35,874 nt of DNA from a virus (lineage: Duplodnaviria > Caudoviricetes), in IMG/VR virus record IMGVR_UViG_3300032223_003566, positions 1 to 35,874 of that record. One strand, given 5' to 3'. The notes below the pieces were generated by a model. That model was not told the DNA's origin and did not search any database. It was given only the letters and a program-made list of their open reading frames with translations. How positions within the stretch are numbered: the first letter of the stretch is position 1; the number at the start of each line of letters is the position of its first letter. The position numbers and the translations under genes were made by a program. This document shows positions 1,654 to 32,049 of the stretch, piece after piece.

Positions 1654-1704
1654 TAATAAAAGGGGTTGCCAAAAGCTCCCCTATTTTTTTTGTTTATTCA
1701 CTTA

Positions 1705-1741
1705 AGGCATGGTATAAACCATGCCTATAAATTTTTATCAA
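1705..1741 (-). repeat. hairpin module copy 2 (reverse)
   Basis: AGGCATGGT-ATAA-ACCATGCCT, TTGATA (rc 1736-1741) 17 nt from loop edge. Confidence 0.85.
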
Positions 1742-1803
1742 ATTTATTTTTTAATTTGCATTCTATATATAATGTGTTATACTAGTTGTGTAAGGAGTTT
1801 GAT

Positions 1804-2136
1804 ATGAGAGATTTTATGACCCTTGGACCAGTGCCATTTGAAGAAGAGTGCATTCAAGTTAGCCCGGAAGTTGACTACACTGAAATGCGAAATGAAGTAA
1901 GCAAGTTTGTTTCTATGTTAGAGCGTCGTTTCACAAACATCCCTGAGAATGCTTATTTTGGTATCAAGCGTGAAAGCCATGATTTTGGCACTTACTTTGA
2001 AGCGGCTGTCTATTGGGATACCAATGACACTGATTCACAAACCTTCGCATTCTTTGTAGAGAACAATCTGCCAGCAACTTGGAAAGATGAATCTACACTT
2101 GATTGGTCAGCTGAATACGCTACTGCTGGAGAATAG
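1804..2136 (+). CDS. acidic hypothetical phage protein
   Basis: Promoter TTGCAT..TATACT, AAGGAG RBS, ATG 1804; motif HDFGTYFE. Confidence 0.8.
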   Translation: MRDFMTLGPVPFEEECIQVSPEVDYTEMRNEVSKFVSMLERRFTNIPENAYFGIKRESHDFGTYFEAAVYWDTNDTDSQTFAFFVENNLPATWKDESTLDWSAEYATAGE

Positions 2137-2142
2137 TTCAAA

Positions 2143-2214
2143 TAATCCCCAGAAAATAATTCTGGGGATTTATCTTTAGTTATGGTATTACCATAACTAC
2201 GAATAATGTTACAA
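2143..2214 (-). repeat. hairpin module copy 3 (reverse, degenerate)
   Basis: ATCCCCAGAA/TTCTGGGGAT hairpin then TAGTTATGGT-ATT-ACCATAACTA. Confidence 0.75.
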
Positions 2215-2291
2215 AAAAATTTTCCAAGTATTGCTTCCATATTGCGTTTATGTTATACTAGAGGTTGTGGAAATCACAGGAGGATAAAATT

Positions 2292-2510
2292 ATGGAAAAA
2301 AAAGAATGGTTTCACATTTTCAATACTGATTATACACAGGTAGAAATTGCAGATATGATGGGCGTGAAACAACCCCAAGTTAGCAATTGGTTGAATGGCA
2401 AGAGAATTCCTACTTCTTCTAATCTTATCAAGCTAGCTGGTATTTTGCAAATGTATCCAGAGAATTTATTGCAAAAATTAGAAGAAATAAAGCAAGTTAA
2501 TCAAGCATAA
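2292..2510 (+). CDS. XRE/Cro-C1 family helix-turn-helix regulator
   Basis: TQVEIADMMGVKQPQVSNWLNGKRIP motif; AGGAGG RBS, ATG 2292; promoter TTGCTT-17-TATACT. Confidence 0.85.
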   Translation: MEKKEWFHIFNTDYTQVEIADMMGVKQPQVSNWLNGKRIPTSSNLIKLAGILQMYPENLLQKLEEIKQVNQA

Positions 2511-2590
2511 TTTTTAAAAAAGCCCTGCAAGAATGTGGGGCTTTTATATAAATGGTGTTATAATAAGACATCAAACCAAGGAGTAGGAGA

Positions 2591-2986
2591 ATGAATGTTT
2601 TAACAGCCCCTAAACAAATTGACAAAGAATTGATTTACACCGACCATGCTATTCAAAGAGCAGAGCAACGTGATGTCCCAATGCCTAAATATGTGCCTCT
2701 TGACGTTCAATGCATCAAGAAAGAATACGATTTGATTCGCAAAATCATGGCATACACATTGAATTTCACCTTTAATGACAACACCTACAGCATGGTAGTT
2801 ACGGAGCGTATGCAAGTTTTAACTGTCTTCAAGCCTCATTTTAGTAATAAGTCCGTCAAGCAAATATTAGATGAAAGGCAATCTATTAAGAAACAGAGTC
2901 CTCGACCAATAGGATACAAAAGACAATCCAAGTATCGTCATCGTGAAGTACAAAATGCCATTCAGCAGTACTATAACTATGCTTAA
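2591..2986 (+). CDS. hypothetical protein, DUF4258-like N-terminus
   Basis: YTDHAIQRAEQR resembles the HA..RM..R motif; RBS AGGAG; terminator 2988-3015. Confidence 0.6.
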   Translation: MNVLTAPKQIDKELIYTDHAIQRAEQRDVPMPKYVPLDVQCIKKEYDLIRKIMAYTLNFTFNDNTYSMVVTERMQVLTVFKPHFSNKSVKQILDERQSIKKQSPRPIGYKRQSKYRHREVQNAIQQYYNYA

Positions 2987-3016
2987 TAATCAGGAGGGAA
3001 ACCTCCTGATTTTTTC

Positions 3017-3090
3017 TTGACAAAAAATTTTAGGTATGGTTTTTACCATACCTAAAAATAATTGCAAGATTTTTTTCTTGCAATTATTTT
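3017..3090 (+). repeat. hairpin module copy 4
   Basis: TTGACA-17 nt; TTTTAGGTATGGT-TTTT-ACCATACCTAAAA; second hairpin AAAATAATTGCAAG/CTTGCAATTATTTT. Confidence 0.85.
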
Positions 3091-3308
3091 TACTTAGCTA
3101 GCGGTCTTACTTCAATTACCAGTTTCATATCCTCTACTGTCCCGCTTGGTTTGAATGTGCAGTAATTGGAACCACATTCACATAGAGGAGCCCAAGCATT
3201 CCAACCTTTACAGGTTGGAATGCAATCTACGCTATCAATTGGATGCCATCTCTCTTCATCCATAATTGATGACCAAAGAGAGAGGAACTTTTTTCTGTAA
3301 TCTGTCAT
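3090..3308 (-). CDS. small Cys-rich hypothetical protein
   Basis: CKGW...CECG motif; ATGA-type overlap with upstream gene. Confidence 0.65.
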   Translation of the reverse strand: MTDYRKKFLSLWSSIMDEERWHPIDSVDCIPTCKGWNAWAPLCECGSNYCTFKPSGTVEDMKLVIEVRPLAK

Positions 3309-3544
3309 TTAAGTCTGTAGCACTTTTCTAGTTTCAATACTACTGCACCATTGTTGTTTTCGGGAATACCACGGTACTTATTGGTTCCCACACGTACACA
3401 ACATCTGACATAATTTTCAGTCATCTCCCAGTACAATGGTAAACGCATCTTATTGTATCGTTTACCATTGTGAATTCCTATGACTTGAATTTGATTATCA
3501 CAACACCATCGAGTTCCACCTTGATTGAGATAAGAATGTCCCAT
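3305..3544 (-). CDS. hypothetical protein
   Basis: Start at 3544 via TAATG overlap and GAGGAG RBS (MGHSYLNQG...). Confidence 0.65.
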   Translation of the reverse strand: MGHSYLNQGGTRWCCDNQIQVIGIHNGKRYNKMRLPLYWEMTENYVRCCVRVGTNKYRGIPENNNGAVVLKLEKCYRLK

Positions 3545-3744
3545 TACTTGTTTACTCCTCTTTGTGTGTAAAAGTTGTTTCCGTCTTGGAGAATCCATTC
3601 TGTGCAATACTTGGATGCATAGTACTCGCCCAAGTCAATTGGGTCACGACCAGAAGCAAGCAACAAACCATTGTAGTGTGCAGTGTAGAGCATCTGTGGC
3701 ACACGGCTCTTGAATTTTACGATTACTTTGTCTGTAGTGTTCAT
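3544..3744 (-). CDS. hypothetical protein, leaderless
   Basis: TTGCAT-16-TATACT promoter with -10 6 nt before ATG. Confidence 0.7.
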   Translation of the reverse strand: MNTTDKVIVKFKSRVPQMLYTAHYNGLLLASGRDPIDLGEYYASKYCTEWILQDGNNFYTQRGVNK

Positions 3745-3850
3745 AGCAATAGTATATCATCTGTTCTATAGTATGCAACATATATTTAAAAAAGAATTAT
3801 CTTGACAATGTATATACAATACGTTATACTATTGTCATAAGGAGATAGAG

Positions 3851-4033
3851 ATGGATTACACTGAAGCAGAACTTGAAGCACGAATTTTCCCTAGCGTTGA
3901 CCTTGACCCCAGAGATTGGGAAGAAGACTGCGAACCATATGAGGATGAATCTTGGATGGATTCTGACGCTCCTGCATCAGCTGGTTTTGGTAATGATGAA
4001 GACTATGCTGGATATGACGACGGAGATTGGTAA
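3851..4033 (+). CDS. very acidic small protein
   Basis: TTGACA(3802)-17-TATACT, AAGGAG RBS; D/E-rich with ASAGFGNDEDY. Confidence 0.75.
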   Translation: MDYTEAELEARIFPSVDLDPRDWEEDCEPYEDESWMDSDAPASAGFGNDEDYAGYDDGDW

Positions 4034-4104
4034 TATCCACTACCACATCCCTTGGCAAAAGTCAAGGGATATTTTATTTAAAAATATTTTTTCTAAAGAT
4101 CTTA

Positions 4105-4126
4105 AGGCATGGTAAAAACCATGCCT
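4105..4126. repeat. hairpin module copy 5
   Basis: AGGCATGGT-AAAA-ACCATGCCT. Confidence 0.85.
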
Positions 4127-4171
4127 AAAAATAATTCACAATAAAAAATTCCCCATTTCTGGGGAACTTTT

Positions 4172-4516
4172 TTACTTTGCATAGTCAGTGCTTTGTCTGG
4201 TAGTGTTCTTGAAAATTTCTGCTACTTTGAACGCTTCAGAAATATATGCGTGAATTGCACTAGTCAAACTCAAAGTTGAAATGTAATTAGCAGTGAGGGA
4301 TTTTATTGGCAAAGTATATTTCAACTCTGTTTCATCATCAAGGAAATGGTATATGTCTGCTTCTATAGCATCCATTGTTGGACTTACAACTATATCAATA
4401 ACACCATTACTATGTGTTACGCTTAAGACTAAGTCTTTTTGACCAAACTCTAACACTTGCTTTACAAACTCTTCTGTAGTATCTACAGTCTTAAAACCGT
4501 TTCTAGAGAACAACAT
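4172..4516 (-). CDS. hypothetical protein
   Basis: 114-aa ORF overlapping upstream gene end. Confidence 0.7.
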   Translation of the reverse strand: MLFSRNGFKTVDTTEEFVKQVLEFGQKDLVLSVTHSNGVIDIVVSPTMDAIEADIYHFLDDETELKYTLPIKSLTANYISTLSLTSAIHAYISEAFKVAEIFKNTTRQSTDYAK

Positions 4517-4823
4517 ATTGGTATTGCTTCTTTCCTTGTAATGCTCTAGATGATTGTACCATAACCATCCACAGAGTAGACAATAAACTAACAGTAGTAA
4601 GACCTGCTACAAACATCATTGTAGTGTCAATGTTTCCACCTAAGACGAATTCAATAAGTGCAGAAATTGGCATGGCGCATAAAACAGTAACTGACATTAC
4701 TGAAATACATTCAAGCAATGTATATAATGCTTTGGGCATATGCTTTGTAATCTGCCAAAACGCCATGATTCCACCACTATAAACAACAACATAAAATAGT
4801 CTATGAATTATCTCTTCGTTCAT
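4503..4823 (-). CDS. membrane protein (about 3 TM), leaderless
   Basis: Hydrophobic segments; TTGACA-16-TATACT with -10 6 nt before ATG. Confidence 0.75.
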   Translation of the reverse strand: MNEEIIHRLFYVVVYSGGIMAFWQITKHMPKALYTLLECISVMSVTVLCAMPISALIEFVLGGNIDTTMMFVAGLTTVSLLSTLWMVMVQSSRALQGKKQYQYVVL

Positions 4824-4871
4824 AGGAATAGTATATCACATATTGTATACCTGTCAAGAAAATAAAAATAT

Positions 4872-4944
4872 TTGATAAATATTTATAGGCATGGTAAATA
4901 CCATGCCTATAAAAAACCCTCAAGAAAATTCTTAGAGGGTTTTT
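4872..4944 (+). repeat. hairpin module copy 6 plus terminator-like hairpin
   Basis: TTGATA-17 nt; TTTATAGGCATGGT-AAAT-ACCATGCCTATAAA; AAAAACCCTC/GAGGGTTTTT. Confidence 0.85.
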
Positions 4945-5224
4945 GGTTGATTTGTGGTTAGCTGGAATTCAACCAGTACGGAACCAATGGCAGTTCTTTC
5001 GATGGTCTCTGCCTCCGATGTTGCCCGTGTCTCATGAAGAGAGCATAGCACCCAACCACAAATCATTATACTTGGATAGATTGTTTGCGTCAACCATCTC
5101 CAAGGGTTCAGTAAAAGATTGTGTTTCCACTCCAAGGTTGCTACCCTTGTTTGAATCTCGCAATAGATTCTAGCCGTTCTGGTCTTTTACTGGATGGAGG
5201 TTGGTTCTCGACTCCAACCTCACA
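4945..5224 (-). ncRNA. candidate structured non-coding RNA (~280 nt), family unknown
   Basis: Perfect stems 4948-4959/5054-5065, 5109-5118/5183-5192, 5197-5204/5214-5221; GAAA tetraloops on minus strand; own promoter TTGCAA(5258-5253)-17-TATTAT and terminator at 4911-4944. Confidence 0.7.
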
Positions 5225-5235
5225 TCAATATAATA

Positions 5236-5529
5236 CTACATCTCTGAGGTGATTGCAACTTTTTCTTGAAGATTCTTTTCTGCTTCTGCGAACAATGTGT
5301 CCCAATCAATATCAGCCCATATTGCCATCATTAACTCTTGTGTGAAGATTGGCAATTTTTCAAATGTGTATTTGCTACCAGTGAAGTCTAACAAAAGATG
5401 ACGACGAATTGTGCCATGGGGAAGAAGGTTTCCACCAACACGCTCTGTCAACTTTCTTTCAATCTTAGGGACGAGAGTTTTACTAGCGATCATTGTTGCT
5501 AGGTTTTTGTAACCGTTGAATGTATCCAT
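5236..5529 (-). CDS. hypothetical protein, leaderless
   Basis: TTGACA-17-TATACT; ATG 6 nt after -10 (MDTFNGYKN...). Confidence 0.7.
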   Translation of the reverse strand: MDTFNGYKNLATMIASKTLVPKIERKLTERVGGNLLPHGTIRRHLLLDFTGSKYTFEKLPIFTQELMMAIWADIDWDTLFAEAEKNLQEKVAITSEM

Positions 5530-5622
5530 GAACATAGTATAAACCAATAAAAGACATATGTCAAATAAATATATTTTTGATATTTTCTTGCATACCTATA
5601 CAACTGATGATATATTTAAGCC

Positions 5623-6006
5623 ATGGAAAACACTACTACTGAACGAATGATGATGACGGTTAATGTCAAAGATGTTAGCGACAAGTCATCCTGCATCGGC
5701 TACATCGGATTTGGTACATGGTTTGATGGCAAAGACTTTATGGTTGCACAATATCAAGCCAATCCTACACAATGGTATTTCTTCGTTTATGACAACCTTC
5801 AAAACCCTGAATCACTTATTCATGGTCATCTGGAAGGCTTCTCATACGGAAATGAAGTTTGGCAGATGAATCCTATCAACGGTAATTTCTACGGTACTAC
5901 ATTCATCTACAATAGCCAACAAGATAAAATGTTGTACCAGAAACAGAAATTTGATTTTTACCATGAAGTAAAAACTCCACCAAGTTTCTTGTTTGAAATC
6001 AGCTAA
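5623..6006 (+). CDS. hypothetical protein, weak KTSC-like SSxIxxIG motif
   Basis: TTGCAT-17-TATATT promoter, leaderless ATG; SSCIGYIGF. Confidence 0.7.
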   Translation: MENTTTERMMMTVNVKDVSDKSSCIGYIGFGTWFDGKDFMVAQYQANPTQWYFFVYDNLQNPESLIHGHLEGFSYGNEVWQMNPINGNFYGTTFIYNSQQDKMLYQKQKFDFYHEVKTPPSFLFEIS

Positions 6007-6050
6007 TCACTACCATATCCCTTGACTTCTGTCAAGGGATATATTTTTAT

Positions 6051-6127
6051 TTGACAAAATTTTTTAGGTATGATCTTTATCATACCTAAAGATAAATCCC
6101 CAGAAAAAAATTCTGGAGATTTATCTT
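6051..6127 (+). repeat. hairpin module copy 7
   Basis: TTGACA-17 nt; TTTAGGTATGAT-CTTT-ATCATACCTAAA; AAAGATAAATC..CAGAA/TTCTG..GATTTATCTTT. Confidence 0.85.
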
Positions 6128-6131
6128 TGGA

Positions 6132-6401
6132 TTAGGCTTCGATGTTTACATACTTAATGCGAACATCAAGCGCAAGGTTGTAGTCTCTCAATGCTTCCAT
6201 CACAACATCTTTCTCATAGACATCTTCACAATCAATGATGAAGTCTTTGAGATATGAAAGGAATGTTCCACGGCTTACCAAGGTGAATGTAGTGCGAATA
6301 TCACCATAAGTGAACTTGCTAAGGAACTGGTCTGATTCACCATGACCAAGTTCTATTGCATCAAAAAATTCTGTTGCGTTTACAAAGTCTACTGTTTCCA
6401 T
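6132..6401 (-). CDS. acidic hypothetical protein
   Basis: GGAGG RBS, TAATG coupling. Confidence 0.75.
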   Translation of the reverse strand: METVDFVNATEFFDAIELGHGESDQFLSKFTYGDIRTTFTLVSRGTFLSYLKDFIIDCEDVYEKDVVMEALRDYNLALDVRIKYVNIEA

Positions 6402-6634
6402 TACTTTACCTCCAAGTTTACAAACGGGTCTTTGATATCTTCGGCTTCACAAGCCATATCATAGTCGGTTTCAATCTTTTCCAACTCTGCTTTAAGTCTA
6501 GTCAACTCTTCTTCAATCCATTGAAGTTTCTGCTTATCGCTTGCAATGTCAACTGAAAGTGCAGACATGATACCGCAAACAAAGATTGTCTTTGCGTTGT
6601 CTTTTTGACCAATATAACTTGTGAAATCCATCAT
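6401..6634 (-). CDS. acidic coiled-coil protein
   Basis: Promoter TTGCAT-16-TATACT, GGGAG RBS. Confidence 0.7.
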   Translation of the reverse strand: MMDFTSYIGQKDNAKTIFVCGIMSALSVDIASDKQKLQWIEEELTRLKAELEKIETDYDMACEAEDIKDPFVNLEVK

Positions 6635-6696
6635 CCTATCTCCCTTACAGCATTAGTATATCACAATGTATATAGTATGCAAGAAAATAAATAAAT

Positions 6697-6772
6697 TTGA
6701 CAAAATTTTAAAGGTCTGGTAAAAACCAGACCTAAAGATAAATCACAAGAATTTTTCTTGTGATTTATCTTT
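6697..6772 (+). repeat. hairpin module copy 8
   Basis: TTGACA-17 nt; AGGTCTGGT-AAAA-ACCAGACCT; AAAGATAAATCACAAGAA/TTCTTGTGATTTATCTTT. Confidence 0.85.
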
Positions 6773-6776
6773 ATTA

Positions 6777-6872
6777 TTACTTTTGTTTGTTGATTGTTAG
6801 GGTTGAAAGCAAACCTATTGCAAGAACCAAACAACCAGCGACTACGAGTGATGTGTGAATAATAGCGTTCAT
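6777..6872 (-). CDS. 31-aa single-TM peptide
   Basis: AGGAGG upstream; MNAIIHTSLVVAGCLVLAIGLLSTLTINKQK. Confidence 0.45.
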   Translation of the reverse strand: MNAIIHTSLVVAGCLVLAIGLLSTLTINKQK

Positions 6873-6896
6873 GTCTATATAGTACCTCCTTTTATA

Positions 6897-7268
6897 TTAC
6901 TTTGCAATACTTGGAAGCAAAGGTGACAAATATTTTGATTGTTCACATCTATCGCACAATCCATCTTTGTTGTGGTCATATCCATAGCACCACACGCACT
7001 TGTATACACCGTGGCGGACATCATCTTTAATTTCAGCTACATCTGCCATATCAATTCTAGCACCTGAACCTGTAACGCCTTCAACTGGTACTGTATTAAA
7101 CTGGTTAGCAAAAAGATGTGTGGTTTCTACTTCAACCCACTTGCCTTGTAATCCCTTGAGAATGTTATAAAACCCCTCATTGTGCAACCCTACAGCATCA
7201 GGACGTGTACCCTTGTAGCATCGTCGCATATAATTATTAGCCGCATTCTCTTTAATCAAAATTTCCAT
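6897..7268 (-). CDS. hypothetical protein with C-terminal CxxC..CxxC
   Basis: TTGACA-16-TATACT promoter, GGGGG RBS; CVWC...CDRC. Confidence 0.75.
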   Translation of the reverse strand: MEILIKENAANNYMRRCYKGTRPDAVGLHNEGFYNILKGLQGKWVEVETTHLFANQFNTVPVEGVTGSGARIDMADVAEIKDDVRHGVYKCVWCYGYDHNKDGLCDRCEQSKYLSPLLPSIAK

Positions 7269-7313
7269 ATCATTCCCCCTTACAGTACTAGTATATCACC
7301 TTTTATATACTTG

Positions 7314-7568
7314 TCAAAAGATTTGTTTTTTGTAGTCTACTGCCTTTGGTTTTTTCTCATAAGATGTAAATTTCTTATTTTTGATAATCCATCGCCCTAC
7401 CAGTTCACCTGCTGGGTTCTCATCATCTGCTACATAAATAGCACAATAATCATTATTATAAGCCTTGGCTAAGATATAGGCTTTGGCTTCCTTAAGGGAT
7501 TTTTCAATGCCGATAGGTCTGGTGCTAAAAGGGTCTTGACCGAGAATCATTCTGTATACTTTGCTCAT
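7314..7568 (-). CDS. hypothetical protein, leaderless
   Basis: TTGCAT-16-TATACT, ATG 6 nt after -10. Confidence 0.7.
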   Translation of the reverse strand: MSKVYRMILGQDPFSTRPIGIEKSLKEAKAYILAKAYNNDYCAIYVADDENPAGELVGRWIIKNKKFTSYEKKPKAVDYKKQIF

Positions 7569-7616
7569 AGGGTTAGTATATCATATTGTATATAGTATGC
7601 AAGAAAATAAATTAAT

Positions 7617-7692
7617 TTGACAAAATTTTTTAGGTATGGTAAAAACCATACCTAAAGATAATTCCCAAGAAAAATTCTTGGGAATTATCTTT
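7617..7692 (+). repeat. hairpin module copy 9
   Basis: TTGACA-17 nt; TTTAGGTATGGT-AAAA-ACCATACCTAAA; AAAGATAATTCCCAAGAA/TTCTTGGGAATTATCTTT. Confidence 0.85.
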
Positions 7693-14137: not shown

Positions 14138-14302
14138 TTACTTTCCTCTACTTCCACTTCTTCTGATTTGAGGCTTTGGCGCATTTGTCGAAGCCTTTTC
14201 ATTTTTATTATCTATTGATGTTTTTGCACCATTATTATTTGCGCCTTTGAATTTGTTCAACAATGCTTCTTGTTCAGGAGATAATTTCTTTTTCATTTCC
14301 AT
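14138..14302 (-). CDS. small basic protein (54 aa)
   Basis: MEMKKKLSPEQEALLNKFKG...RRSGSRGK; AAGGA RBS. Confidence 0.55.
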   Translation of the reverse strand: MEMKKKLSPEQEALLNKFKGANNNGAKTSIDNKNEKASTNAPKPQIRRSGSRGK

Positions 14303-14781
14303 ATCCTTTTTATTTTGTCAATCTGTTTTTTTGTAATACCTATATAAGAATCTGTTTTTATATGATTTTTGGCTTCATTGCCCAAACTATCATCATCTAA
14401 TATTATATAGTCTTTCACGTTATTTTTATCTATAAATCTCTTTATCTGTGCCCATCTGTCTTTGTGTTCTTCTCCCTTTTCATCTGTCTTTGCTACTACT
14501 GCGCCTTTGAATCCATTATCTTTGAATATTTTATTTATTTTTTCTATTGGATATCTTGTGCGCCAATAGGAAGACAGCACTATTTTGGGATTATATTTTT
14601 TTATTATTACATTTAGAAGATCTATTTGTTTTTTACTAATTACAAAAGATATATCGTTTATTTTCTTTAGGAATTCTGTGCCTGTCATATTATAATCATC
14701 GAAGGAATTCATCACTCCATCTATATCCAGGAAAAGATACTTCTGTTCTTTTGCGCCTTTTATTGTAATTTTGTATTTCAT
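14293..14781 (-). CDS. HAD-family phosphatase (HAD_SAK_2-like)
   Basis: FLDIDGVMN, IVLSSYWR, YIILDDD motifs. Confidence 0.85.
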   Translation of the reverse strand: MKYKITIKGAKEQKYLFLDIDGVMNSFDDYNMTGTEFLKKINDISFVISKKQIDLLNVIIKKYNPKIVLSSYWRTRYPIEKINKIFKDNGFKGAVVAKTDEKGEEHKDRWAQIKRFIDKNNVKDYIILDDDSLGNEAKNHIKTDSYIGITKKQIDKIKRIWK

Positions 14782-14904: not shown

Positions 14905-15804
14905 ATGAAAAAAGCGTTTACTCTTATTGAACTCCTCGTTGTCATTGCAATCATCGCTATTTTGGCTGCAATTCTCTTCCCTGTTTTTGCCCAGGCTCGT
15001 GATAAGGCTCGTTCTGCATCCTGCTTATCTAATATGAAGCAGATTGGTACATCTACTATGATGTATGTCCAAGACTATGATGAGAACTATTATCCACACC
15101 GTTTTAACTGCCGTGATGCATCTAATGCATTTCAGGTATGTCCTCAATATGTAGGCGACCCAGCTGCTAGTGCTTATGATGCAAATTCTTCTATGCGTTA
15201 TTACTGGGTACACTTACTTCAACCATATGTAAAGAACTATACTTTATTCAAGTGTCCAAGCAATCCAACTGCTTTTGTACCAGGAGATAAAGCAAAGATC
15301 AATTTCAATGCACCAGGAGCATTGGGAACAAACTATGGTGGACAAAACTCATATGGACACAATGATGCTTGGATGAGTCCTGCTGGTCCATTTGCTGACG
15401 CTAGTGGCAATCCACAAAGTGTTGCAGCAGCTAGCGTTTCCAGACCTGCTGGAATTGTTCTTGTATCAGATGCATCTTACTATGGTGTAGTTCCAGATGT
15501 AATGAATGAATCAGGTTTACTTGATACTACTAAGTTTACATCTGATGATATTGCTGCTATCCAAACATATGTAAATTCTCAAGGTAGTCAATATAAGTAT
15601 TACTGGAAGAATATTGGAAACGCAAACTGGAGTGCATCTGGTGGCACTCTAGACGCTGCAACAGCATTAACTAAAATTGGTGCTAGACATACTGGTACTG
15701 TCAACTGTATTTTTGTAGATGGACATGCTAAGGCAATTCAATACAAGAAAGCAGTAGGAGATCTTTGTCTTTGGGCTACTGGAAGTTATCAAGGTTGCAA
15801 CTAA
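14905..15804 (+). CDS. prepilin-type N-terminal cleavage/methylation protein with H-X9-DG domain (DUF1559-like)
   Basis: [45 protein letters not shown]; C-term [12 protein letters not shown]. Confidence 0.92.
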
Positions 15805-16087: not shown

Positions 16088-19000
16088 ATGAAAAGGTATA
16101 GTTTTAGGATAATCACAGCTGGCATAAAAGAAGATATTTTGGGAATTTGTAATTTCCTGAATAAAGATGCAGAATATTATCAAGACTTGAGAGAAACAGT
16201 AAAACAATATGATCAAAAGTATCAAGTATTTGCTGCTTGGTTATTAGCCCGTAATATTGAAGCAGATGATTATGTTAAAGCTATACAAAAATATGTTGAC
16301 TCAAGAAGAATTACTAATTTTTCAGTTAGTAAAAATGCTGTCAAAATAAACGACGAAGTTTTTGATGATGCGATTAAATTAACAGAATATATCCACGCTC
16401 AATTTCCTATTTTAGAAGCTGAAGAACAAGCTACAAACACTGAAACAGAAGATGTTCCTGTTGTAGCAAATAAAGATAATTCTATAAGGATATTTGAGAT
16501 AAATAATGCCAACGATGGTAGAAGATTAGTTGGTGATGATACAAGTTGGTGTATTGGCTATAAGGGCCCAAATAATATGTGGCAATCTTATAGAGATTCG
16601 CACGATGCTTCATTTTTCGTAGTTTTTGATAACAATCCTCCTACAGAAAATCAAAGAAAAGTTGCAATTGATTTTGCTTCAGGTAATGTTTTATTAACAG
16701 ACATTCCAAATCTTACAGGGCATCGACTTTCGAATGGATGGGATTGGGATCGGTATTCTGAATATTTATCTAGCAAGGGAATAAATTTACAAGCAACAAG
16801 GCCAAATCCCGAAACTGGTCAAGAAGAGTTAATTCTCAAGAATAAACCCAAGAGTACAGAAGAAAGATTACAAAATGGCACTTTTAACTATATAGCTGTT
16901 TTGGGTGTGGAAGATATACTTTTATGGCAATCTGGAAAATCTAAAGTTAATGGCGAAGATAGAGACATAGAAAGAATAGATAAAAATAGTTTAGATATCA
17001 TAGAAGAGGTTTCAGATAGATCTGGTATTGCTTACATCCTCAATAACCCTGATGCTAAATTCTATACTTCAAGATGGATGGGTTTAGGCAAACGTGTAAA
17101 AGATGAAGTTTTAGAATATTTATCTAGAAGTGTTGGTGGTGAAGATTTGTTGATGAAATATGTCAACACTGGGTTGCCACTTTCTGAAACGCAATATCAA
17201 TTTTTTAGAAAAAACAAAAATTTACTTACTTCATACTTAAGAAGTCAAATTATAGGTGGTAGAAGATTTAGCCCTATTATGCAAATTGATTTAATGAACT
17301 TAAATAGAAAAGATTTATTTAAAGATTTAATTGAAAAACAGGGTGGTATAGATGAAATTGCACAACCAACCTTAAAAGAAAAACCAGATTTATTAAGAAT
17401 TTATCTTGAAACTTTGATAGAAAACGATAACTTACAAACTGGTACTGGAGTTCGCCTTAATGATGCTGATTTATTATTAGATTTAAACGACAGAGATTTA
17501 TTGATCAAATATATTAGCACTGTAAAAACTTTTGTTCCAAATGGTGTACGAAATTTAATTTTTGAAGATCCAAAATTATTTTTATTGTATGCAAAAAATA
17601 GATTGACAGATAATAATTTAGTAGATTACACTTCGGCTATTCCAAAAAATGATTTAAAAAATGTCGTATTGCAATCAGGGGATAAATCACTTATCAAAGA
17701 AGTGGCTATGGCAACTGGTTTTAATGAAGAAGATTTTGAAAAAGCAAAAGAACTTGGGGTATTGGAAGAAGTAAAGTATTCAATATTATGTCCAAAACCC
17801 TCCGAAAAGATTGCTAAATATTACAATCCTAACGATCCATTTGATCTTTCATTAATTAATCAAATCAAAGATGTAGATTTTTTACGTGAATTTTCTTTTA
17901 ATAATTTTGACGAATATAGTGAAACTTATCAATATGATTGGAGTGATAATCCAACCATAAATTTTGCATTTGATCTTAAGGAACACGAACAAACAATCTT
18001 AAAAGACGCTCATTACGCATACAAAGATAGACCAGAAGAAATTGTCCCTCATAATGCAAATCAAACTTTATTATGGGCTATTTACAATGATGGCAAATTA
18101 TTTAAGAAAGAAGAAGAACTGGAGATGAGTGATGAGGCAAAAGAAAATTTCAGAGATGCTATTCTAGAATTTCAAAATGCATCACAAGATATAAATTTCT
18201 GGAAAAATTTCTTTAAGAATATTGATCATTTTGCTGATTGGATAGGTAGTGAACTTAATTATAATGAAAATGATTTTGCAAACATTTTAAAGTTTATTCC
18301 ACAAGAATTTTTAGAAGATCCTGAAATTAAAGAATTTTTGCAGAGAAGAATGAACAGCATTTCTGCTAAGAATTTTATGTCTAATATAGACATTGAAAAA
18401 ACACCTTGGTTATATGAAGACTATATAAATCAATTTCTAGATGGTAACAGAAATGTAAGATCTGAATTTTACAGAGTATTACATCGTGGTAGAAGTTATG
18501 CATTTGAATTCCTTTCAAAAATACTAGAAAAAAGAAAATTTAGTGATGAAGAAATTGATTCTTTCAAAGACTTTACACCAGACATTATCTTAGAGTTTTT
18601 GGATTTGTATACACATTATTATCCAGAAGTAAAAGAAGATCCAAATTTTTATAATTTAGGAATATTTAGTTATTTTAGAAATCGTCCAAATTTGAATCAT
18701 CAATTACATTTATTAAGAAATTATCCTAAATATTTTGAAACAAGAATTTTAGAGGGAGACGTTTATGTTAATATATTGCCAGAAATAAGGGCAGCATTAG
18801 TTCATATGTATCCTAACCTTGCTCCGAAAATTCTTGCATATGAAAGACAATCAAAATATGGCACTGGATATTTTGATGAAGACGCTGGCCAAGTGATGAA
18901 AGGAAAAAGACCAACACCGCCTGGAACACAAAAAGAATTGCCTGATCCATTTGCGTCAGAAGAACCTGAAGAAGATGAAGAAGAAGAACTTACCACTGCC

Positions 19001-19102
19001 TTTGTAAAATCTATGGTGAAAATAGCTCAGAAATTAGATTTTAATTATCAATACAAGTTAGCAGATAAGTTTACAAATATATTGAGAAAATACAATGTTT
19101 AA
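16088..19102 (+). CDS. large hypothetical protein, SWCI domain, C-terminal tag
   Basis: DTSWCIGYKGPNNMWQSYR domain; C-term MVKIAQKLDFNYQYKLADKFTNIL. Confidence 0.85.
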   Translation: MKRYSFRIITAGIKEDILGICNFLNKDAEYYQDLRETVKQYDQKYQVFAAWLLARNIEADDYVKAIQKYVDSRRITNFSVSKNAVKINDEVFDDAIKLTEYIHAQFPILEAEEQATNTETEDVPVVANKDNSIRIFEINNANDGRRLVGDDTSWCIGYKGPNNMWQSYRDSHDASFFVVFDNNPPTENQRKVAIDFASGNVLLTDIPNLTGHRLSNGWDWDRYSEYLSSKGINLQATRPNPETGQEELILKNKPKSTEERLQNGTFNYIAVLGVEDILLWQSGKSKVNGEDRDIERIDKNSLDIIEEVSDRSGIAYILNNPDAKFYTSRWMGLGKRVKDEVLEYLSRSVGGEDLLMKYVNTGLPLSETQYQFFRKNKNLLTSYLRSQIIGGRRFSPIMQIDLMNLNRKDLFKDLIEKQGGIDEIAQPTLKEKPDLLRIYLETLIENDNLQTGTGVRLNDADLLLDLNDRDLLIKYISTVKTFVPNGVRNLIFEDPKLFLLYAKNRLTDNNLVDYTSAIPKNDLKNVVLQSGDKSLIKEVAMATGFNEEDFEKAKELGVLEEVKYSILCPKPSEKIAKYYNPNDPFDLSLINQIKDVDFLREFSFNNFDEYSETYQYDWSDNPTINFAFDLKEHEQTILKDAHYAYKDRPEEIVPHNANQTLLWAIYNDGKLFKKEEELEMSDEAKENFRDAILEFQNASQDINFWKNFFKNIDHFADWIGSELNYNENDFANILKFIPQEFLEDPEIKEFLQRRMNSISAKNFMSNIDIEKTPWLYEDYINQFLDGNRNVRSEFYRVLHRGRSYAFEFLSKILEKRKFSDEEIDSFKDFTPDIILEFLDLYTHYYPEVKEDPNFYNLGIFSYFRNRPNLNHQLHLLRNYPKYFETRILEGDVYVNILPEIRAALVHMYPNLAPKILAYERQSKYGTGYFDEDAGQVMKGKRPTPPGTQKELPDPFASEEPEEDEEEELTTAFVKSMVKIAQKLDFNYQYKLADKFTNILRKYNV

Positions 19103-21872
19103 TAATCGTATAGTGATAGCACAAAAAGAATTATTTATTTCTATTTTTAACGCAGTTGGAAAAAATTACAATGACTATAAAGAAATTGTAAATAAATATA
19201 GTTCAGTTTTTAAGCCTCTTGCTGCTTGGATGCTAGCAAGAGATTCTGATGAAAATGCTATTAATGATATTGTTAGTCATCTCACTCAATATATAAATCG
19301 TAAAAAATTAAATCCTGCTAATATCAAGGTATCTAAAACTTTTGTTGTTATAAATGATCAACAATTTGATGACTTGATGGCGTTGATTGATTTTGTTCAC
19401 GGTAATTTTCCAATAGCAAAGAAACAAGAAGAAAGAGTAGAGCAATCTGAAACAAATCATACTCCTGTTCTCACTGGTGATGGAATTAAAGTTTTCAAAG
19501 TAGAAAAAGCGCTTGATAGTAAACAATTAGCTGCAGATACTTCTTGGTGTATTGCTTATCAAGGCGCTAACAATATGTGGCAAAGTTATAGAAGTAATCA
19601 AGCTGCTACATTTTATATTGTATGGGACGAAAATCCACCCACTCCTAATCAAAGAAAAGTGGCTCTGCAATTTAATAATAACAACGTTCAAATTACTGAT
19701 ATTCCGAATAGAACAGGTTCAAATTTATCAAATGAAATTTCTTTCGAATACGAAGGAAAAATGATTACTGGGAGAGATATTCCCACATATCTTACTTATT
19801 TGAAAAGTAAGGGAGTGAATATAGATGCTACAACAACTAATCCTGAAACTGGTCAAGAAGAAAAAGTCTTAAAAAATAAACCAATTACACCAGAAGAAAA
19901 ATTAGAAACTGGTTTAGGTAATTATGTTAAAAGCTTCCATAATATAAATGTTGATGATATAAAAAGTTGGTCTACTGGGAAATTTGAATTAAGGCCTTAC
20001 TCAAAAGATGGATTTATCAAAGACAACGGAGATAATACTTATTCACCTTCTGCTGGGGGACATATCGGGAAATCAATAGAAATACCTGAAGAAATGATTG
20101 TTGAAAAAACTCATTTGGGTAAAAGTGCAGGGGTTTTGCCTTCAGAATCGATGTCTCATTTATTAGAGTCATTAACTATTGAATCAGAAAGTGTTAAAAC
20201 ATATCTATCCAAATTCATTGGTATGGGATGGATTATGCCTGATGATATTTTTGAATATTTATTTGATGTTCCTGGTGGCAAAGATTATTTAGTTCAATAT
20301 GTCAACACTGGATTAGAATTACCTCGTACTCAAATAGAAAAAATTCAAACAGACAAACAATTATTTAATTCATATGTCAAACAGCAATTAACTGCTTGGG
20401 AAATGAATCATAATCAAGGCGATGTTTTACAATATCTTGATCCTAATGATGCAAAAGATAAAGAAAAAGTTTTGAAAGCATTTTCTAAAACAAAAAGTAC
20501 AAATAGAATTCCTGACAATTGGAAAGAAAATGTACCTCAAATTGGAATATCTGTTGCTGATATAGATGACGATCTTAATTTTAGTGATCCTTTGGCTGAA
20601 AAATTAGCTATTGCAAAAGGTTTATATAAGGTTTATCAAAAAAATCCAACATTAGAAAATACAAGAATTTTTCTTCATACCCCAGAAGCTATTGAACCAA
20701 TGAAACCACTGGCAGGAGCAAATGGTTATAATGATGATGTCTTAAAATCTCCTAGTAATTACCATGATTTTGCTTATAAATGGAAGTTTGTACCTGATGA
20801 ATTTAAGAACCTTCCAGAATTTTATGAAATATCAAAAATTGGGCAAGTTTTAGGTGATAACAGATATAATTTAATTTCTGAATTTAAAAGTAAAAATGAA
20901 TCTGACTTGACACGAGATGACTTCGAAACTGGTATGGTTATCTCTTTTGCAACTGCTTGGGATTTTGAAGATACCCCAATTGGCAATTCTGCAAAATTTT
21001 GGAATTATTTATATGATAATTATGAAAAATATTTTAGTGGCAGATTTGATAGAGTATTCAAAGAAAAAAGAGACATTCCTGATGATGTAGATGAGGATGA
21101 CGATGATTTCGACGAAACAGAGTATCCTACTTACGATGAACCGACTGAACAAAAATGGATGATTGATGTAAAGTTAAGAAATATTCCAAAAAATTTATTG
21201 CTTGATTCTAATATGAGAGAAAAATTCTTAAGTAGATTTAATACAAAAATTCTTGTTTCCAAACTTACGGATTCTCCGTATTCTCAAGATTGCATAAATT
21301 TAGCAGCAGAATATGTGAACAGTATTCAAGATCTTCCAATATCATATACATTTGCAGGTTATTTAACATATAATAAAAATCCTATAACAGAAAAAATATT
21401 AAAGATATCAGGTTTAGACGAATATAATAAATATATGACAAAATGGCGTAGTCAATTAGATATAAGAGACTATGCAAGATTATTAAATTTTTATCCTTTT
21501 GTTGGCGATCAAATTACAGATCAAATGTTGCTGGCAAATTGGGCAAAAATGAATTTAATAAACTCTACTGAAAAATTAGAAACATTTAGAAATCTTGTAA
21601 ATGCAAGACCAGAATTTTTTAGAAACCATTGGCAAGAATTAGATTTATGGCCTGTTTGGATATCAGAATTAAGAGAAAGAAATATTATCGGCACACAAAC
21701 ACCTCAACCAATTCAAGAGCGCCCAGACAATAATTCCGCTTTACCTGAAATAGATGATCAAGAGGTATTAGCTTCTGTCAAATCTATGCTAAAAATCGCT
21801 CAAAAACTTGATTTTAAAAAAGAATATAGGTTAGCAGATAAACTAACCTATATTTTAACAAAAAAAATATAA
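19095..21872 (+). CDS. paralog of 16088 protein, C-terminal tag
   Basis: DTSWCIAYQGANNMWQSYR, NPETGQEE, YVNTGL shared; C-term MLKIAQKLDFKKEYRLADKLTYIL. Confidence 0.85.
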   Translation: MFNNRIVIAQKELFISIFNAVGKNYNDYKEIVNKYSSVFKPLAAWMLARDSDENAINDIVSHLTQYINRKKLNPANIKVSKTFVVINDQQFDDLMALIDFVHGNFPIAKKQEERVEQSETNHTPVLTGDGIKVFKVEKALDSKQLAADTSWCIAYQGANNMWQSYRSNQAATFYIVWDENPPTPNQRKVALQFNNNNVQITDIPNRTGSNLSNEISFEYEGKMITGRDIPTYLTYLKSKGVNIDATTTNPETGQEEKVLKNKPITPEEKLETGLGNYVKSFHNINVDDIKSWSTGKFELRPYSKDGFIKDNGDNTYSPSAGGHIGKSIEIPEEMIVEKTHLGKSAGVLPSESMSHLLESLTIESESVKTYLSKFIGMGWIMPDDIFEYLFDVPGGKDYLVQYVNTGLELPRTQIEKIQTDKQLFNSYVKQQLTAWEMNHNQGDVLQYLDPNDAKDKEKVLKAFSKTKSTNRIPDNWKENVPQIGISVADIDDDLNFSDPLAEKLAIAKGLYKVYQKNPTLENTRIFLHTPEAIEPMKPLAGANGYNDDVLKSPSNYHDFAYKWKFVPDEFKNLPEFYEISKIGQVLGDNRYNLISEFKSKNESDLTRDDFETGMVISFATAWDFEDTPIGNSAKFWNYLYDNYEKYFSGRFDRVFKEKRDIPDDVDEDDDDFDETEYPTYDEPTEQKWMIDVKLRNIPKNLLLDSNMREKFLSRFNTKILVSKLTDSPYSQDCINLAAEYVNSIQDLPISYTFAGYLTYNKNPITEKILKISGLDEYNKYMTKWRSQLDIRDYARLLNFYPFVGDQITDQMLLANWAKMNLINSTEKLETFRNLVNARPEFFRNHWQELDLWPVWISELRERNIIGTQTPQPIQERPDNNSALPEIDDQEVLASVKSMLKIAQKLDFKKEYRLADKLTYILTKKI

Positions 21873-25119: not shown

Positions 25120-25476
25120 TTAAGCTTCTGAACCACATAACCAAAGATAATTATTAATTTTCTGCACTACATCACAACTTGTTTCGTAAAATCCACCTAA
25201 AGAATTTTCCACTTCTAAATGTAAATCTAATTCATCAATTATATTCCAAATAGCTTTATGAGAAACAAACGATCCTTTAGGCTGCCATATATTGTCTATA
25301 ATCTCATAATTATCAAATTCAAATTCAAACAAAAATGCTTCCATTAATTGATTGAAATTTATTTTTGATTTATCTAATCTTTGCGTTTTTAATAATTTAT
25401 AAAAATCTTTGTCAGAGAAACATCTATTATTTTCGATCATACATTCGATGAAAACTACAGCAAAGAATTCTTCCAT
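25120..25476 (-). CDS. hypothetical protein
   Basis: 118-aa ORF overlapping upstream gene end. Confidence 0.65.
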   Translation of the reverse strand: MEEFFAVVFIECMIENNRCFSDKDFYKLLKTQRLDKSKINFNQLMEAFLFEFEFDNYEIIDNIWQPKGSFVSHKAIWNIIDELDLHLEVENSLGGFYETSCDVVQKINNYLWLCGSEA

Positions 25477-26540
25477 AAATTAATTTTACCACTATTGGCA
25501 GTGATAACAGGATTACTTGGGTCAAACTCTATATTTTCTCTAGCGTGTTTGATGTTTTCAGGATTCCAAGTGATGTAATGTTTGATTGGTTTCTTTTGAG
25601 AGTACATTCTGAAAAATTGATTAGGATCCATAATAATACTGTCGTGCCCTAATGAATTAATAAATCTTTTGACAATATCACCTTTAAATTGAGTATCTTG
25701 ATCACTATCCCAAAATTCTAATTTTTTAATTAAGTCCATAATTAATGAAGATGCTGAAATTTCTTCATCAAACCCAACAGAATTTTCTTGAACTAATTCT
25801 TCACAAATTTCATAAACAACATCAGAATCAAAATAATCTGACAAAATATCATGCAATTTAGAAATTACAGTACTGAAATTATGGTTGTCAGAAGGATTGA
25901 TTCTTTTGCCTAAAAAATCCATACTACCTTCTATATCATCAATGAAAACTTTTTCTGGATGTTCTGCATCTTGTGAACTTGTAAGATGAATTGGATTTTT
26001 CATCCTAACGTGAGCAGGTATTACTCTGGGTTTATTTGGTCCTAAAATTGTATCTCTGGCAATTTTTTCTGCTAGATAACTTGGGTTGTATGGTGTGCCG
26101 TCTTCATTAAAATCTCTACTGTATCTTGGATCATCACTATATAAATTCCATAGATAATATTCGTCTTCACCATATTGATCAAGCAAATCATATTGTAGAT
26201 TTTCAATGTTTCTTTCTTGGTCAGGCCCAGTGCCAGTGTAATTTTTAGAAGCATCCTCTTCATCACTAGTAAAGTAAAATGCTGGACCAAAATAATTACT
26301 CATCGAGCCTTTATCAATATCAAATCTATCAAATTCGTGTGTTGTTCCGTGATAGACAGGTTCTTCTGGCACATAATGACCCTTTGCCCAATCACTAAAA
26401 AATAAACTTTGAGGTTCTTTTTGTGTTTCTAAAAGTTCAGGTGATTTATCTTTTGGTTCTGATCTTTCTTTAGTTTTTGGCTGGGATTGTTCTACATCTA
26501 AACCAGGAAGTTGTAATTGTTGAGCTAATTTATACCACAT
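25455..26540 (-). CDS. ADP-ribosyltransferase-like (ART-PolyVal type) protein with MWY leader
   Basis: VYHGT..FDRFD...FGPAFYFTSD; start MWYKLAQ at 26540. Confidence 0.75.
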   Translation of the reverse strand: MWYKLAQQLQLPGLDVEQSQPKTKERSEPKDKSPELLETQKEPQSLFFSDWAKGHYVPEEPVYHGTTHEFDRFDIDKGSMSNYFGPAFYFTSDEEDASKNYTGTGPDQERNIENLQYDLLDQYGEDEYYLWNLYSDDPRYSRDFNEDGTPYNPSYLAEKIARDTILGPNKPRVIPAHVRMKNPIHLTSSQDAEHPEKVFIDDIEGSMDFLGKRINPSDNHNFSTVISKLHDILSDYFDSDVVYEICEELVQENSVGFDEEISASSLIMDLIKKLEFWDSDQDTQFKGDIVKRFINSLGHDSIIMDPNQFFRMYSQKKPIKHYITWNPENIKHARENIEFDPSNPVITANSGKINLWKNSLL

Positions 26541-27315
26541 CGAATAACTCCATCTGATAAGGATCTTTTTCTTTAGATTCTTTAAATTCTTTTGGAATTC
26601 TATGAACTGTATCAAAAGCCTCGCCACCTAAATCAGAACCCATATCAGACCATTCAGACGGTTTAAGAGTTTTAAGCGCTGTATCTTCATCAATACTTAA
26701 ATGATTTAAAAGTTTTTTCAATGATTCAATTTCTTTCTGGGTTTCTGCAATATTTTCTTCAAATCTGCCAGGTTGTTTTTTATCAAATTCCAAAAGCTGT
26801 TCTAAAGAACGTTGAGCTATCATCAAATTTCTGAAAGCAGTTTCATAATTTTGATGCTTTCCAATTGCTTCTGGTTTACCAAAAACTCTATTCTGTGCTT
26901 TATGGGTCTGAAGAGAATGTATATTACTAACCATGTATTCTGCTTTAGATAGTTTTGGATCATTACTTATATACTCTAACATTTTTTCATAAAGCTTGGT
27001 TGATATGCCTCTGCCAAGGTTTGATATATATGTATCTTCTCCTACTTTAATGTCAAAAACTTGAACCAGTATAATTGTGATAGTATTGCTAGACTCATCA
27101 TAACCAAAGTCTAAATGACCAATATATTTTTTGCTTCCAGGAGCATAAACTTCAATTCTGTATGTGTCTATTCTTCCGTATCTTTCAACTAATTTTTTCC
27201 CAAGATATCTAATCTTGTAGGATAAATCATTAAAATCTAATTTACCTACACCCATGTCAGGAAAATTCATTTGACCAGAAGGATCAATTAGTGTTAATGC
27301 TTTTCTATACCACAT
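26530..27315 (-). CDS. GNAT-like protein with MWY leader
   Basis: LGRGISTKLYEKML resembles acetyl-CoA-binding motif A. Confidence 0.55.
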   Translation of the reverse strand: MWYRKALTLIDPSGQMNFPDMGVGKLDFNDLSYKIRYLGKKLVERYGRIDTYRIEVYAPGSKKYIGHLDFGYDESSNTITIILVQVFDIKVGEDTYISNLGRGISTKLYEKMLEYISNDPKLSKAEYMVSNIHSLQTHKAQNRVFGKPEAIGKHQNYETAFRNLMIAQRSLEQLLEFDKKQPGRFEENIAETQKEIESLKKLLNHLSIDEDTALKTLKPSEWSDMGSDLGGEAFDTVHRIPKEFKESKEKDPYQMELFDVV

Positions 27316-28296: not shown

Positions 28297-28602
28297 TACA
28301 ACCGACAGGACTCGAACCTGTGGCCAAATGCTTAGCTTACCACTATAGTTTTCACTACCCTATTTCTAGGTTTGTGGTCTGGACTATATCTTCACCATTT
28401 CAGGTGTGGTACGTATAGTCTCTACGGGGTTAAAGAATTTCTTCTCAACTTCCCTCGGTATTAGCATATATTTCTACTTAGCTTTCACCGATACAGTACC
28501 ATCCATTTTATAGATTTTTATTCTCTATAAAAGCTCCCATTTACCATACTATATTATGGTGTCTTTAAGGCATTTGCTCTATCCTGACTGAGCTACGGTT
28601 GC
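28297..28602 (-). tRNA. tRNA-Arg(UCU) interrupted by group I intron
   Basis: 5' exon GCAACCG..AAATGCCTT (28602-28567) + 3' exon CTAAGCATTT..GTTCGAGTCCTGTCGGTTGTA (28335-28297) give loop CU-UCU-AA. Confidence 0.85.
28336..28566 (-). mobile_element. group I intron (231 nt, ORF-less)
   Basis: U before 5' splice site, terminal G; R element GUAGAGACUA and S element AAGAUAUAGUCC. Confidence 0.85.
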
Positions 28603-31290: not shown

Positions 31291-32049
31291 TTATTGTTTT
31301 GGTATTTCAAGCTTTCCAAATTTTATTTTTTCCCAATCGCCTCTTCCAGGTTTTTTGATACCATAAAGTTTGCACCACTTGTTTACAGCATTATCACTTA
31401 CGCCATACATCTCACCTATTTTGACACAAGACATTTCCCAAACAAGTTTTTCTAAAGTTTCTTTATCAGGTCTTTTAGAAATCTTTACAACAGGTGCATA
31501 ACTTACTACTGGCTTTGTTTCTGGAATGTAAGTTTGTCTGATTTCATTTTGTAGAATAACATATTCATCTATTTCAATCAATCCAGCGTGTATCTCTGAA
31601 TGGCAATTTGAACAAACTATAATGCATTTATTAAGTTCGATTTGCAGAACTTCAAATGGCTTGGTCATATTACTTGAAAAACCAAACTCTTTTTCGTGAG
31701 GTTCTATGTGATGAAAACTTAATGCTGCAATACATTTACTATAATTACAGACAATACATTTCCCTCCCATATAATCAACAGCTTTTCTTTTTTTATTTTG
31801 TCTTGATCGGGTTGTACGACAAGTATTGCAAATATTTTTATGCTGTTGATGACCTCCTGGATATTCTTTTTCACAAATACGGCAAATATTCATCACAGGT
31901 TTTTCTTCAGATAAATGTAATTGTTTAGTGTTATGCTGCTTGAATGGAGAGCATTCAAAACAATACAATCGATTGTAAGTTGTTTTTAATTGACCTTCCA
32001 AATATATTCTTGCAGGTATAGTATTTTCGCATTTTTTGCATTTTTTCAT
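31291..32049 (-). CDS. free-standing HNH endonuclease with Zn fingers and C-terminal HTH
   Basis: GGKCIVCNY..ALSFHH..ELNKCIIVCSNCHSEIH; IGEMYGVSDNAVNKWCK. Confidence 0.85.
   Translation of the reverse strand: MKKCKKCENTIPARIYLEGQLKTTYNRLYCFECSPFKQHNTKQLHLSEEKPVMNICRICEKEYPGGHQQHKNICNTCRTTRSRQNKKRKAVDYMGGKCIVCNYSKCIAALSFHHIEPHEKEFGFSSNMTKPFEVLQIELNKCIIVCSNCHSEIHAGLIEIDEYVILQNEIRQTYIPETKPVVSYAPVVKISKRPDKETLEKLVWEMSCVKIGEMYGVSDNAVNKWCKLYGIKKPGRGDWEKIKFGKLEIPKQ

Follow-up and report, generated by a model that had tools for sequence, protein, structure and literature searches.

A conserved, modular structured RNA gene with a tRNA-shaped tail in uncultured freshwater phages

The window, i.e. the whole stretch of DNA analysed here, is an entire virus record of 35.9 kb. 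Its minus strand carries, at 5223-4944, a folded RNA gene of about 280 nt, a real, conserved and modular phage non-coding RNA (ncRNA) composed of three parts: a 5' hairpin of variable sequence, a core termed D1 (5192-5071) and a tRNA-shaped tail termed D2 (5065-4948). The gene is surrounded by small, individually promoted genes and by copies of a repeated palindromic hairpin. It should be added that this palindromic module is present in about six copies between early genes (window 1701-7674), beside promoters, and is possibly an operator, a terminator or a site of cassette recombination. Clusters of tRNA genes lie 26 kb from the RNA in the window and 8-14 kb from it in three jumbo phage records, and a tRNA-Leu was found directly 3' of D2 in three of 100 distinct loci. 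Coordinates of the individual features are compiled in Table 1.

Table 1. Features in and around the RNA gene, in window coordinates
Feature	Position	Strand	Remarks
-35-like hexamer	5253..5258	-	inside last codons of upstream ORF 5236-5547; similar site in many relatives
-10 hexamer	5230..5235	-	position conserved; predicted start ~5223
5' hairpin, 8 bp	5197..5221	-	several different sequences in relatives; absent in L011
D1 junction domain P1-P4	5109..5192	-	P1 5192-5183/5118-5109, P2 5170-5153, P3 5148-5134, P4 5130-5121
D1 near-invariant single strand	5180-5171	-	alignment of 56
P5 hairpin, part of D1	5071..5104	-	covaries; loop predicted to kiss P2 loop
Predicted kissing-loop pseudoknot PK2, 5 bp	5085..5163	-	5163-5159 with 5089-5085
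Possible pseudoknot PK1, 4 bp	5140..5174	-	5174-5171 with 5143-5140
Internal promoter-like site	5065..5093	-	11/12; start would fall at D2 acceptor helix
D2 tRNA-shaped tail	4948..5065	-	acceptor-like helix 5059-5052/4961-4954, extended to 5065/4948
D2 arm A	5051-5022	-	long first arm
D2 arm B	5017-4979	-	GAAA tetraloop where anticodon arm would be
D2 T-arm	4976-4962	-	4 bp, 7-nt loop
ACCA just past long helix	4944..4947	-	position not conserved
Terminator-like hairpin and U-tract	4911..4942	-	read from sequence

The first-pass annotation of this DNA had described a GC-richer island at this place, and the composition bears it out: GC is 0.457 in 4945-5224 against 0.326 contig-wide, with none of 1780 sampled 280-nt windows as high. 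The minus strand folds with a z-score of -4.2 (0 of 100 shuffles were as good), the plus strand with -2.8. All pairs of the two proposed closing stems were recovered, 12 of 12 for 4948-4959/5054-5065 and 10 of 10 for 5109-5118/5183-5192, as were the 8-bp 5' hairpin and the intermediate hairpin, P5. As to the two tetraloops named on the minus strand, UC-GAAA-GA is invariant in 56 of 56 aligned relatives; GUG-GAAA-CAC is indeed present in the window, but it represents a local shortening shared by 4 of 80 distinct cores and is not conserved.

Relatives were collected by pattern scans of viral and metagenome contigs, which returned at least 154 pattern matches and at least 97 distinct cores. Among the cores listed, at least 79 (at least 125 loci, some contigs being counted twice) scored at least 35 bits and were kept, and 18 of the 97 distinct cores listed scored under 35 bits and were dropped as chance. 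The first pattern scan, which used the window's own GAAA loop, gave two matches, both by chance. At least 75 distinct full-length versions were 70-97% identical to the window, with a median of 86%. From 61 selected full-length sequences an alignment of 56 was prepared, five with indels (L035, L043, L047, L072 and L138) being left out.

In this alignment, 98.2% of the cells at predicted pairs hold pairing. Two-sided change was observed in 34 of the 83 pairs, compared with 17.8 in shuffles and 4-7 with partners slid, counts that are inflated by relatedness, several of the changes being single block events. The top MI-APC signals corresponded to predicted pairs or to neighbours of predicted pairs. 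Protein coding was rejected: the overlapping plus-strand ORF is open in none of 55 relatives and the minus-strand ORF in 12 of 55, frame-shifting indels occur in 25, and there is no PHROG match. Pairing, and not a reading frame, is therefore what the relatives conserve. Comparison with Rfam 15 gave no family match to the RNA at the gathering threshold; at E <= 10 there were 15 weak matches, all below cut-off, none of them on D1 and most of them on flanking hairpins. ARAGORN called nothing at the RNA, neither tRNA nor tmRNA, in agreement, as are the unconserved ORFs, with the earlier statement that it does not look like tmRNA. The two-sided pairing changes, the broken ORFs and the lack of an Rfam family match thus uphold the view of a novel ncRNA of the phage that has a promoter of its own.

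A single copy of the RNA was found in each of five carrier records, three of them of 300-358 kb, one a 104-kb fragment and one a complete 84-kb phage. Among 20 runs listed as holding the RNA stretch or part of it, 17 were labelled as freshwater, lake, river or aquatic, and three only as 'metagenome'. The RNA belongs to uncultured freshwater phages and is common in freshwater data sets. A blastn comparison of the window RNA with 50,697 cultured phage records gave one match, by chance. Furthermore, a search for cellular copies in 185,579 species genomes yielded a single exact-pattern match, on a 4.3-kb contig with the phage's neighbour genes, which is likely mis-binned.

Within D1, two-sided change affected five of ten pairs in P1, five of six in P2 and three of four in P4, and none of the four in P3, which is invariant. 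The letters predicted to form PK2 are paired in 28 of 28. L011 contributes a two-sided change and there are four G-U changes, which weakly supports a predicted kissing loop in D1. A second knot, PK1, is possible and unsupported by covariation, three of its four pairs being invariant and the fourth broken in 2 of 56. Freeing those letters in a scan revealed no PK1 variants among its 27 loci, of which 7 matched by chance, 19 were on known contigs and one was a genuine new copy that carries the usual letters. It should be added that the invariance of the D1 blocks is partly built in by the search patterns; loci selected by D2, and a scan with four-letter stretches freed, returned the same D1 letters.

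The first-pass annotation had also considered the RNA not tRNA-like, which is wrong for the 3' domain, since D2 resembles the top half of a tRNA. Among 76 distinct D2 sequences, the 8-bp helix is fully paired in 74, G stands at +1 in 73 and the T-loop reads UU(G/A)AA in 75, so that an acceptor helix stacked on a T-arm with a 7-nt T-loop is present (74/76 and 75/76, respectively). The T-stem has no covariation support because it is invariant, and no partner of T-loop position 56 was found (best MI 0.18). An anticodon arm with a 7-nt loop is lacking, arm B ending in the invariant GAAA tetraloop, and the offset of CCA varies among the 76 sequences, none of which has it immediately 3' of the 8-bp helix; without an anticodon loop and a fixed CCA, D2 would therefore not decode mRNA. 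The inner arm of D2 is exact in 114 of 118 untruncated loci selected by D1. A 27-nt hairpin is inserted in the arm B bulge of L043, L072, L138 and L155, at the position of the tRNA variable arm.

Transfer RNAs of the 8/4 type, the allo-tRNAs of Mukai et al., occur in phages (PMC5389517). Like these, D2 combines a T-stem of 4 bp with an acceptor helix of 8 bp or more; unlike them, it has no anticodon loop, D-loop pattern or fixed CCA, and its helix is usually longer than 8 bp. The helix extension measures 0-3 bp in 21 of 76 and 4-6 bp in 55 of 76 sequences, and these extensions of at least 4 bp, together with the 12-bp helix of the partner of D1 in locus L012, leave no sharp 8/4 boundary. Because the helix usually extends and the CCA is unfixed, we regard D2 as a mimic of the tRNA top half and not as a demonstrated 8/4 tRNA; neither ARAGORN nor the Rfam tRNA model called it.

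The partners of D1 differ between loci. In the 125 loci listed, some contigs again being counted twice, D2 comes next after D1 in 108, an insert of about 110 nt and then D2 in six, and other sequence in four; seven loci are truncated. In L012, D2 is replaced by a degenerate tRNA (28.5 bits with Rfam tRNA, cut-off 29) with a 12-bp helix, and in L011 and L057 D1 leads into an ORF. The former, the complete 84-kb phage, has a higher GC content (46% in the region compared); its D1 is positioned right at the promoter, without the 5' hairpin, and forms a 5' leader, 16 nt before an AUG. Conversely, D2 was never seen without D1, which is present in 11 of 11 loci selected by D2. These natural domain swaps (D1 alone, D1 with D2, and D1 with a degenerate tRNA) show which part to examine.

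The insert between D1 and D2, a four-way cloverleaf with nearly identical copies, was identified in L007 (1594-1690), L015, L052, L066, L118 and L122, of which L066 ends early. It holds a 7-nt loop resembling the P3 loop of D1. The insert of L015 had no Rfam match, and a scan for standalone copies gave two new matches, both by chance.

The best working analogue for such a combination of a module with a tRNA mimic is YrlA, a bacterial Y RNA that is also found in phages; in M. smegmatis, RNase P cleaves YrlA and CCA is added to it (PMC4201824). YrlA likewise joins a functional module to a tRNA-mimic module. The architecture differs in that the acceptor helix closes D2 and in YrlA is located between the D and T arms. 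The window RNA has no Rfam match to Y RNA, and the Ro60/TROVE gene was detected in none of the five carrier records, four of which are incomplete, the control being positive in 2 of 14 genomes.

A promoter embedded in the end of the upstream ORF had been proposed at the outset. In 77 of 83 distinct upstream sequences, the 5' hairpin is preceded at a distance of 3-8 nt by a -10-like hexamer (exactly 6 nt in 72), compared with a flank background of 6.2%, the regular expressions having been drawn from the same data. The promoter-like site at 5258-5230 is supported because the position of its -10 relative to the 5' hairpin is conserved; its score adds little, as the site reaches 9/12 and sites of this kind occur in the region at chance level (44 found against 43.9 expected). 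The internal promoter-like site is kept in 41 of 80 distinct cores. As to the proposed U-tailed terminator, hairpin and U-tract are present at 4942-4911; the list of the terminator scan does not include them. Within 75 nt downstream, a terminator-like hairpin was found in 52 of 85 relatives, counted without a background run. As for the 5' hairpin, 21 of its 33 distinct versions gave folding z-scores below -2 relative to mononucleotide shuffles; its sequence comes in several types, and therefore only its shape would matter. It is predicted to protect the 5' end.

Contigs assembled from RNA runs (4 of 4 compared) cover 6-7 of 30 bins, all inside the RNA and only at 4945-5194, not the flanks, compared with 29-30 of 30 bins, i.e. 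nearly all of the 1.1 kb compared, downstream gene included, for contigs from DNA runs; the comparison comprised four of six RNA runs and four of 14 DNA runs, and concerns assembled contigs without strand, ends or level, from RNA runs that were picked for holding the RNA stretch and whose phages may have other flanks. This coverage fits a discrete and abundant RNA. One RNA-run contig of 282 nt spans the D1-D2 junction; it fits an uncut RNA, and could be a precursor or DNA. Adapter-marked contig ends at 4988-4989, seen in two RNA studies, are too weak to be called an RNA end. The host-type promoter and the slot among small, separately promoted genes would point to early expression.

We found no description of this RNA family in the literature searched, subscription papers being outside its scope. 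Four supplement files of Fremin 2023 (PMC10690425), a study with 10,006 candidate structured RNAs, contained no match; its alignments and bed file, outside that scope, may list the family. What is new here are the domain swaps of the D1 partners and the failed test against T4 RNAD/RNAC detailed below.

Host takeover is a frequent function of the small genes that phages express early. Our tentatively favoured reading is that the RNA may be an early, trans-acting decoy that binds a host factor. Pairing and the -10 position are conserved, no ORF is, and each record has a single copy. The host sigma70-type polymerase would produce a single transcript, about 300 nt long, immediately on entry, and the hairpin, free in sequence, would shield its 5' end. 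D1 would be the working unit, because it occurs without D2, and its near-invariant unpaired letters would form the binding surface. D2 would mimic the acceptor/T-arm half of a tRNA, and maturation or stabilisation of the RNA would therefore fall to the tRNA-processing machinery of the host (RNase P, 3' trimming). The putative target would be a host defence or stress protein, as it is for many of the small early products that phages encode in slots of this kind. Some observations count against parts of this scheme: the constancy of the D2 inner arm exceeds the need of a mere handle, D1 as a 5' leader in the 84-kb phage fits a cis role, and the extended acceptor helix may block or shift cleavage by RNase P.

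It is rather unlikely that D1 is a mobile pseudoknotted aptamer, i.e. an RNA-only counter-defence factor which, placed on tRNA-shaped carriers or mRNAs, would soak up an immune signal or block a defence enzyme. If true, it would be the RNA counterpart of protein sponges and a new class. More generally, should D1 bind a defence protein or signal, it would represent an anti-defence factor made of structured RNA.

Structured RNAs of phages whose function is unknown, such as T4 RNAC/RNAD, ROOL and GOLLD, are a long-standing gap, and the small size of the family described here allows direct experiments in vitro. ROOL and GOLLD likewise are structured phage ncRNAs with kissing loops whose function is given as unknown in 10.1101/2024.12.08.627333; they are much larger and located near tRNA islands. 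That the window RNA would, like these, self-assemble into an RNA-only multimer, through intermolecular kissing at PK2 and docking of GAAA, seems unlikely. The loops of P2 and P5 are complementary in 28 of 28 and the GAAA tetraloop of D2 is invariant, and contacts in ROOL/GOLLD that were first read from covariation proved to be intermolecular (10.1101/2024.12.08.627333). Yet the RNA is far smaller than GOLLD, many members of which exceed 800 nt according to that source, it has no Rfam match to either family, D1 survives without D2, and there was no D1-D2 covariation among the top MI-APC pairs.

The roles of the two domains may also be reversed, with D2 as the working part, a tRNA top-half decoy for defence enzymes that attack tRNA, and D1 as the stabiliser. 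The conserved acceptor/T-arm and the exchange of D2 for another tRNA-like RNA in L012 would agree with this, as would the encounter of T4 with the tRNA nuclease PrrC, described in PMC3014915. Nevertheless we consider such a decoy improbable: D2 has no anticodon loop, the main recognition feature of PrrC in that text, and D1 is found without D2, never the reverse.

Distinctly unlikely is a small-molecule aptamer in D1, which would act as a sponge of nucleotide signals in the jumbo phages and as a cis switch in the 84-kb phage. The junction is of riboswitch size with near-invariant unpaired letters, and the leader position of D1 in L011 would suit a switch. Against it, the L011 leader showed no alternative fold covering the ribosome site (minimum free energy folding only), no Rfam riboswitch matched, and D1 is usually not upstream of a gene.

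A role of D1 as a novel ribozyme, self-cleaving or processing, that would cut the precursor is very unlikely; if D1 does cleave, it would represent a new ribozyme class. Its core is compact, possibly double-knotted and of ribozyme size, with invariant letters, and it precedes varied 3' partners. No ribozyme family in Rfam matched it, however, in L011, where D1 starts directly from its promoter, there would be no upstream RNA to remove, and PK1 lacks covariation.

T4 RNAD (species 2, 119 nt) and RNAC (species 1, 139 nt) are likewise phage-encoded in tandem, about 265 nt in all, a compact RNA followed by an RNA ending in a T-arm. Their roles are given as unknown in PMC3014915 and PMC9697503, the latter placing them at the end of the tRNA cluster and classing them as late; unlike them, the window RNA has its own host-type promoter, away from tRNAs. 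It is highly improbable that the latter is a distant, rearranged relative of this pair. Apart from the same layout and size, RNAD resembles D1 in a 5-bp hairpin and in a short block, the order of the two being reversed. However, the D1 model, run on 50 kb of T4, scored RNAD at 8.0 bits and E 6.2 (row 33 of 50), which is noise, and the D2 model gave no match to RNAC at E <= 3. Among the relatives of RNAD, the 3' block pairs with the segment after the first hairpin to close a stem, with a two-sided change in L182, whereas D1 has no partner for its look-alike block; moreover, the loop of the look-alike hairpin is replaced in divergent RNAD relatives. Two scans for intermediates between D1 and RNAD gave only chance matches (11 of 11). 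D1 as a circular permutant of RNAD was thus rejected for its noise-level score, other pairing and lack of intermediates, and D2 as a relative of RNAC for want of a model match; kinship is largely refuted, and the T4 pair is an analogue, not supported as a homologue.

It should be added that unannotated relatives of T4 RNAD (L160, L182 and L183-L185) were found in Vequintavirinae, Phapecoctavirus, Karamvirus and Jiaodavirus. They give the first covariation-supported closing stem for T4 RNAD.

A role as an antisense regulator of phage genes is highly improbable. In 26 loci, the gene divergent from the RNA is leaderless and belongs to the MENT.. family, with a shared start tag, which would favour such a role; but no pairing with the RNA was found, and the longest complement, 13 nt, was matched or beaten by 4 of 30 shuffles, i.e. 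chance level within the 36-kb window, the genome part searched. Leaderless genes with the same 13 starting letters (MENT..) are located at window 5623, at eight sites in L213 and at two sites in L214, and their carriers are the window phage, the 358-kb relative and the 84-kb carrier of D1. The shared start tag may hint at a common host.

Elsewhere in the window, a prepilin/DUF1559 gene (14905-15804) may point to the host group; the pilin-like gene had no tblastn match. The T4-type capsid family matched nowhere, controls included, and hence is uninformative on the phage group. Two large tandem paralogues (16088-19102 and 19095-21872; 1004 and 925 aa) have no PHROG or confident Pfam match. Further assignments are an RNA-repair HAD domain (14293-14781), a polyvalent-protein ADP-ribosyltransferase domain (25455-26627) and a Fic domain (34294-34923). 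A group I intron was identified on the minus strand at 32227-32422 (81.8 bits, cut-off 50); it adjoins an HNH gene (31291-32049) as well as three tRNAs. The stretch 28336-28399 of the same strand, which has no Rfam match, is 80% like the 3' end of this intron and is possibly part of a second intron, split or ORF-containing.
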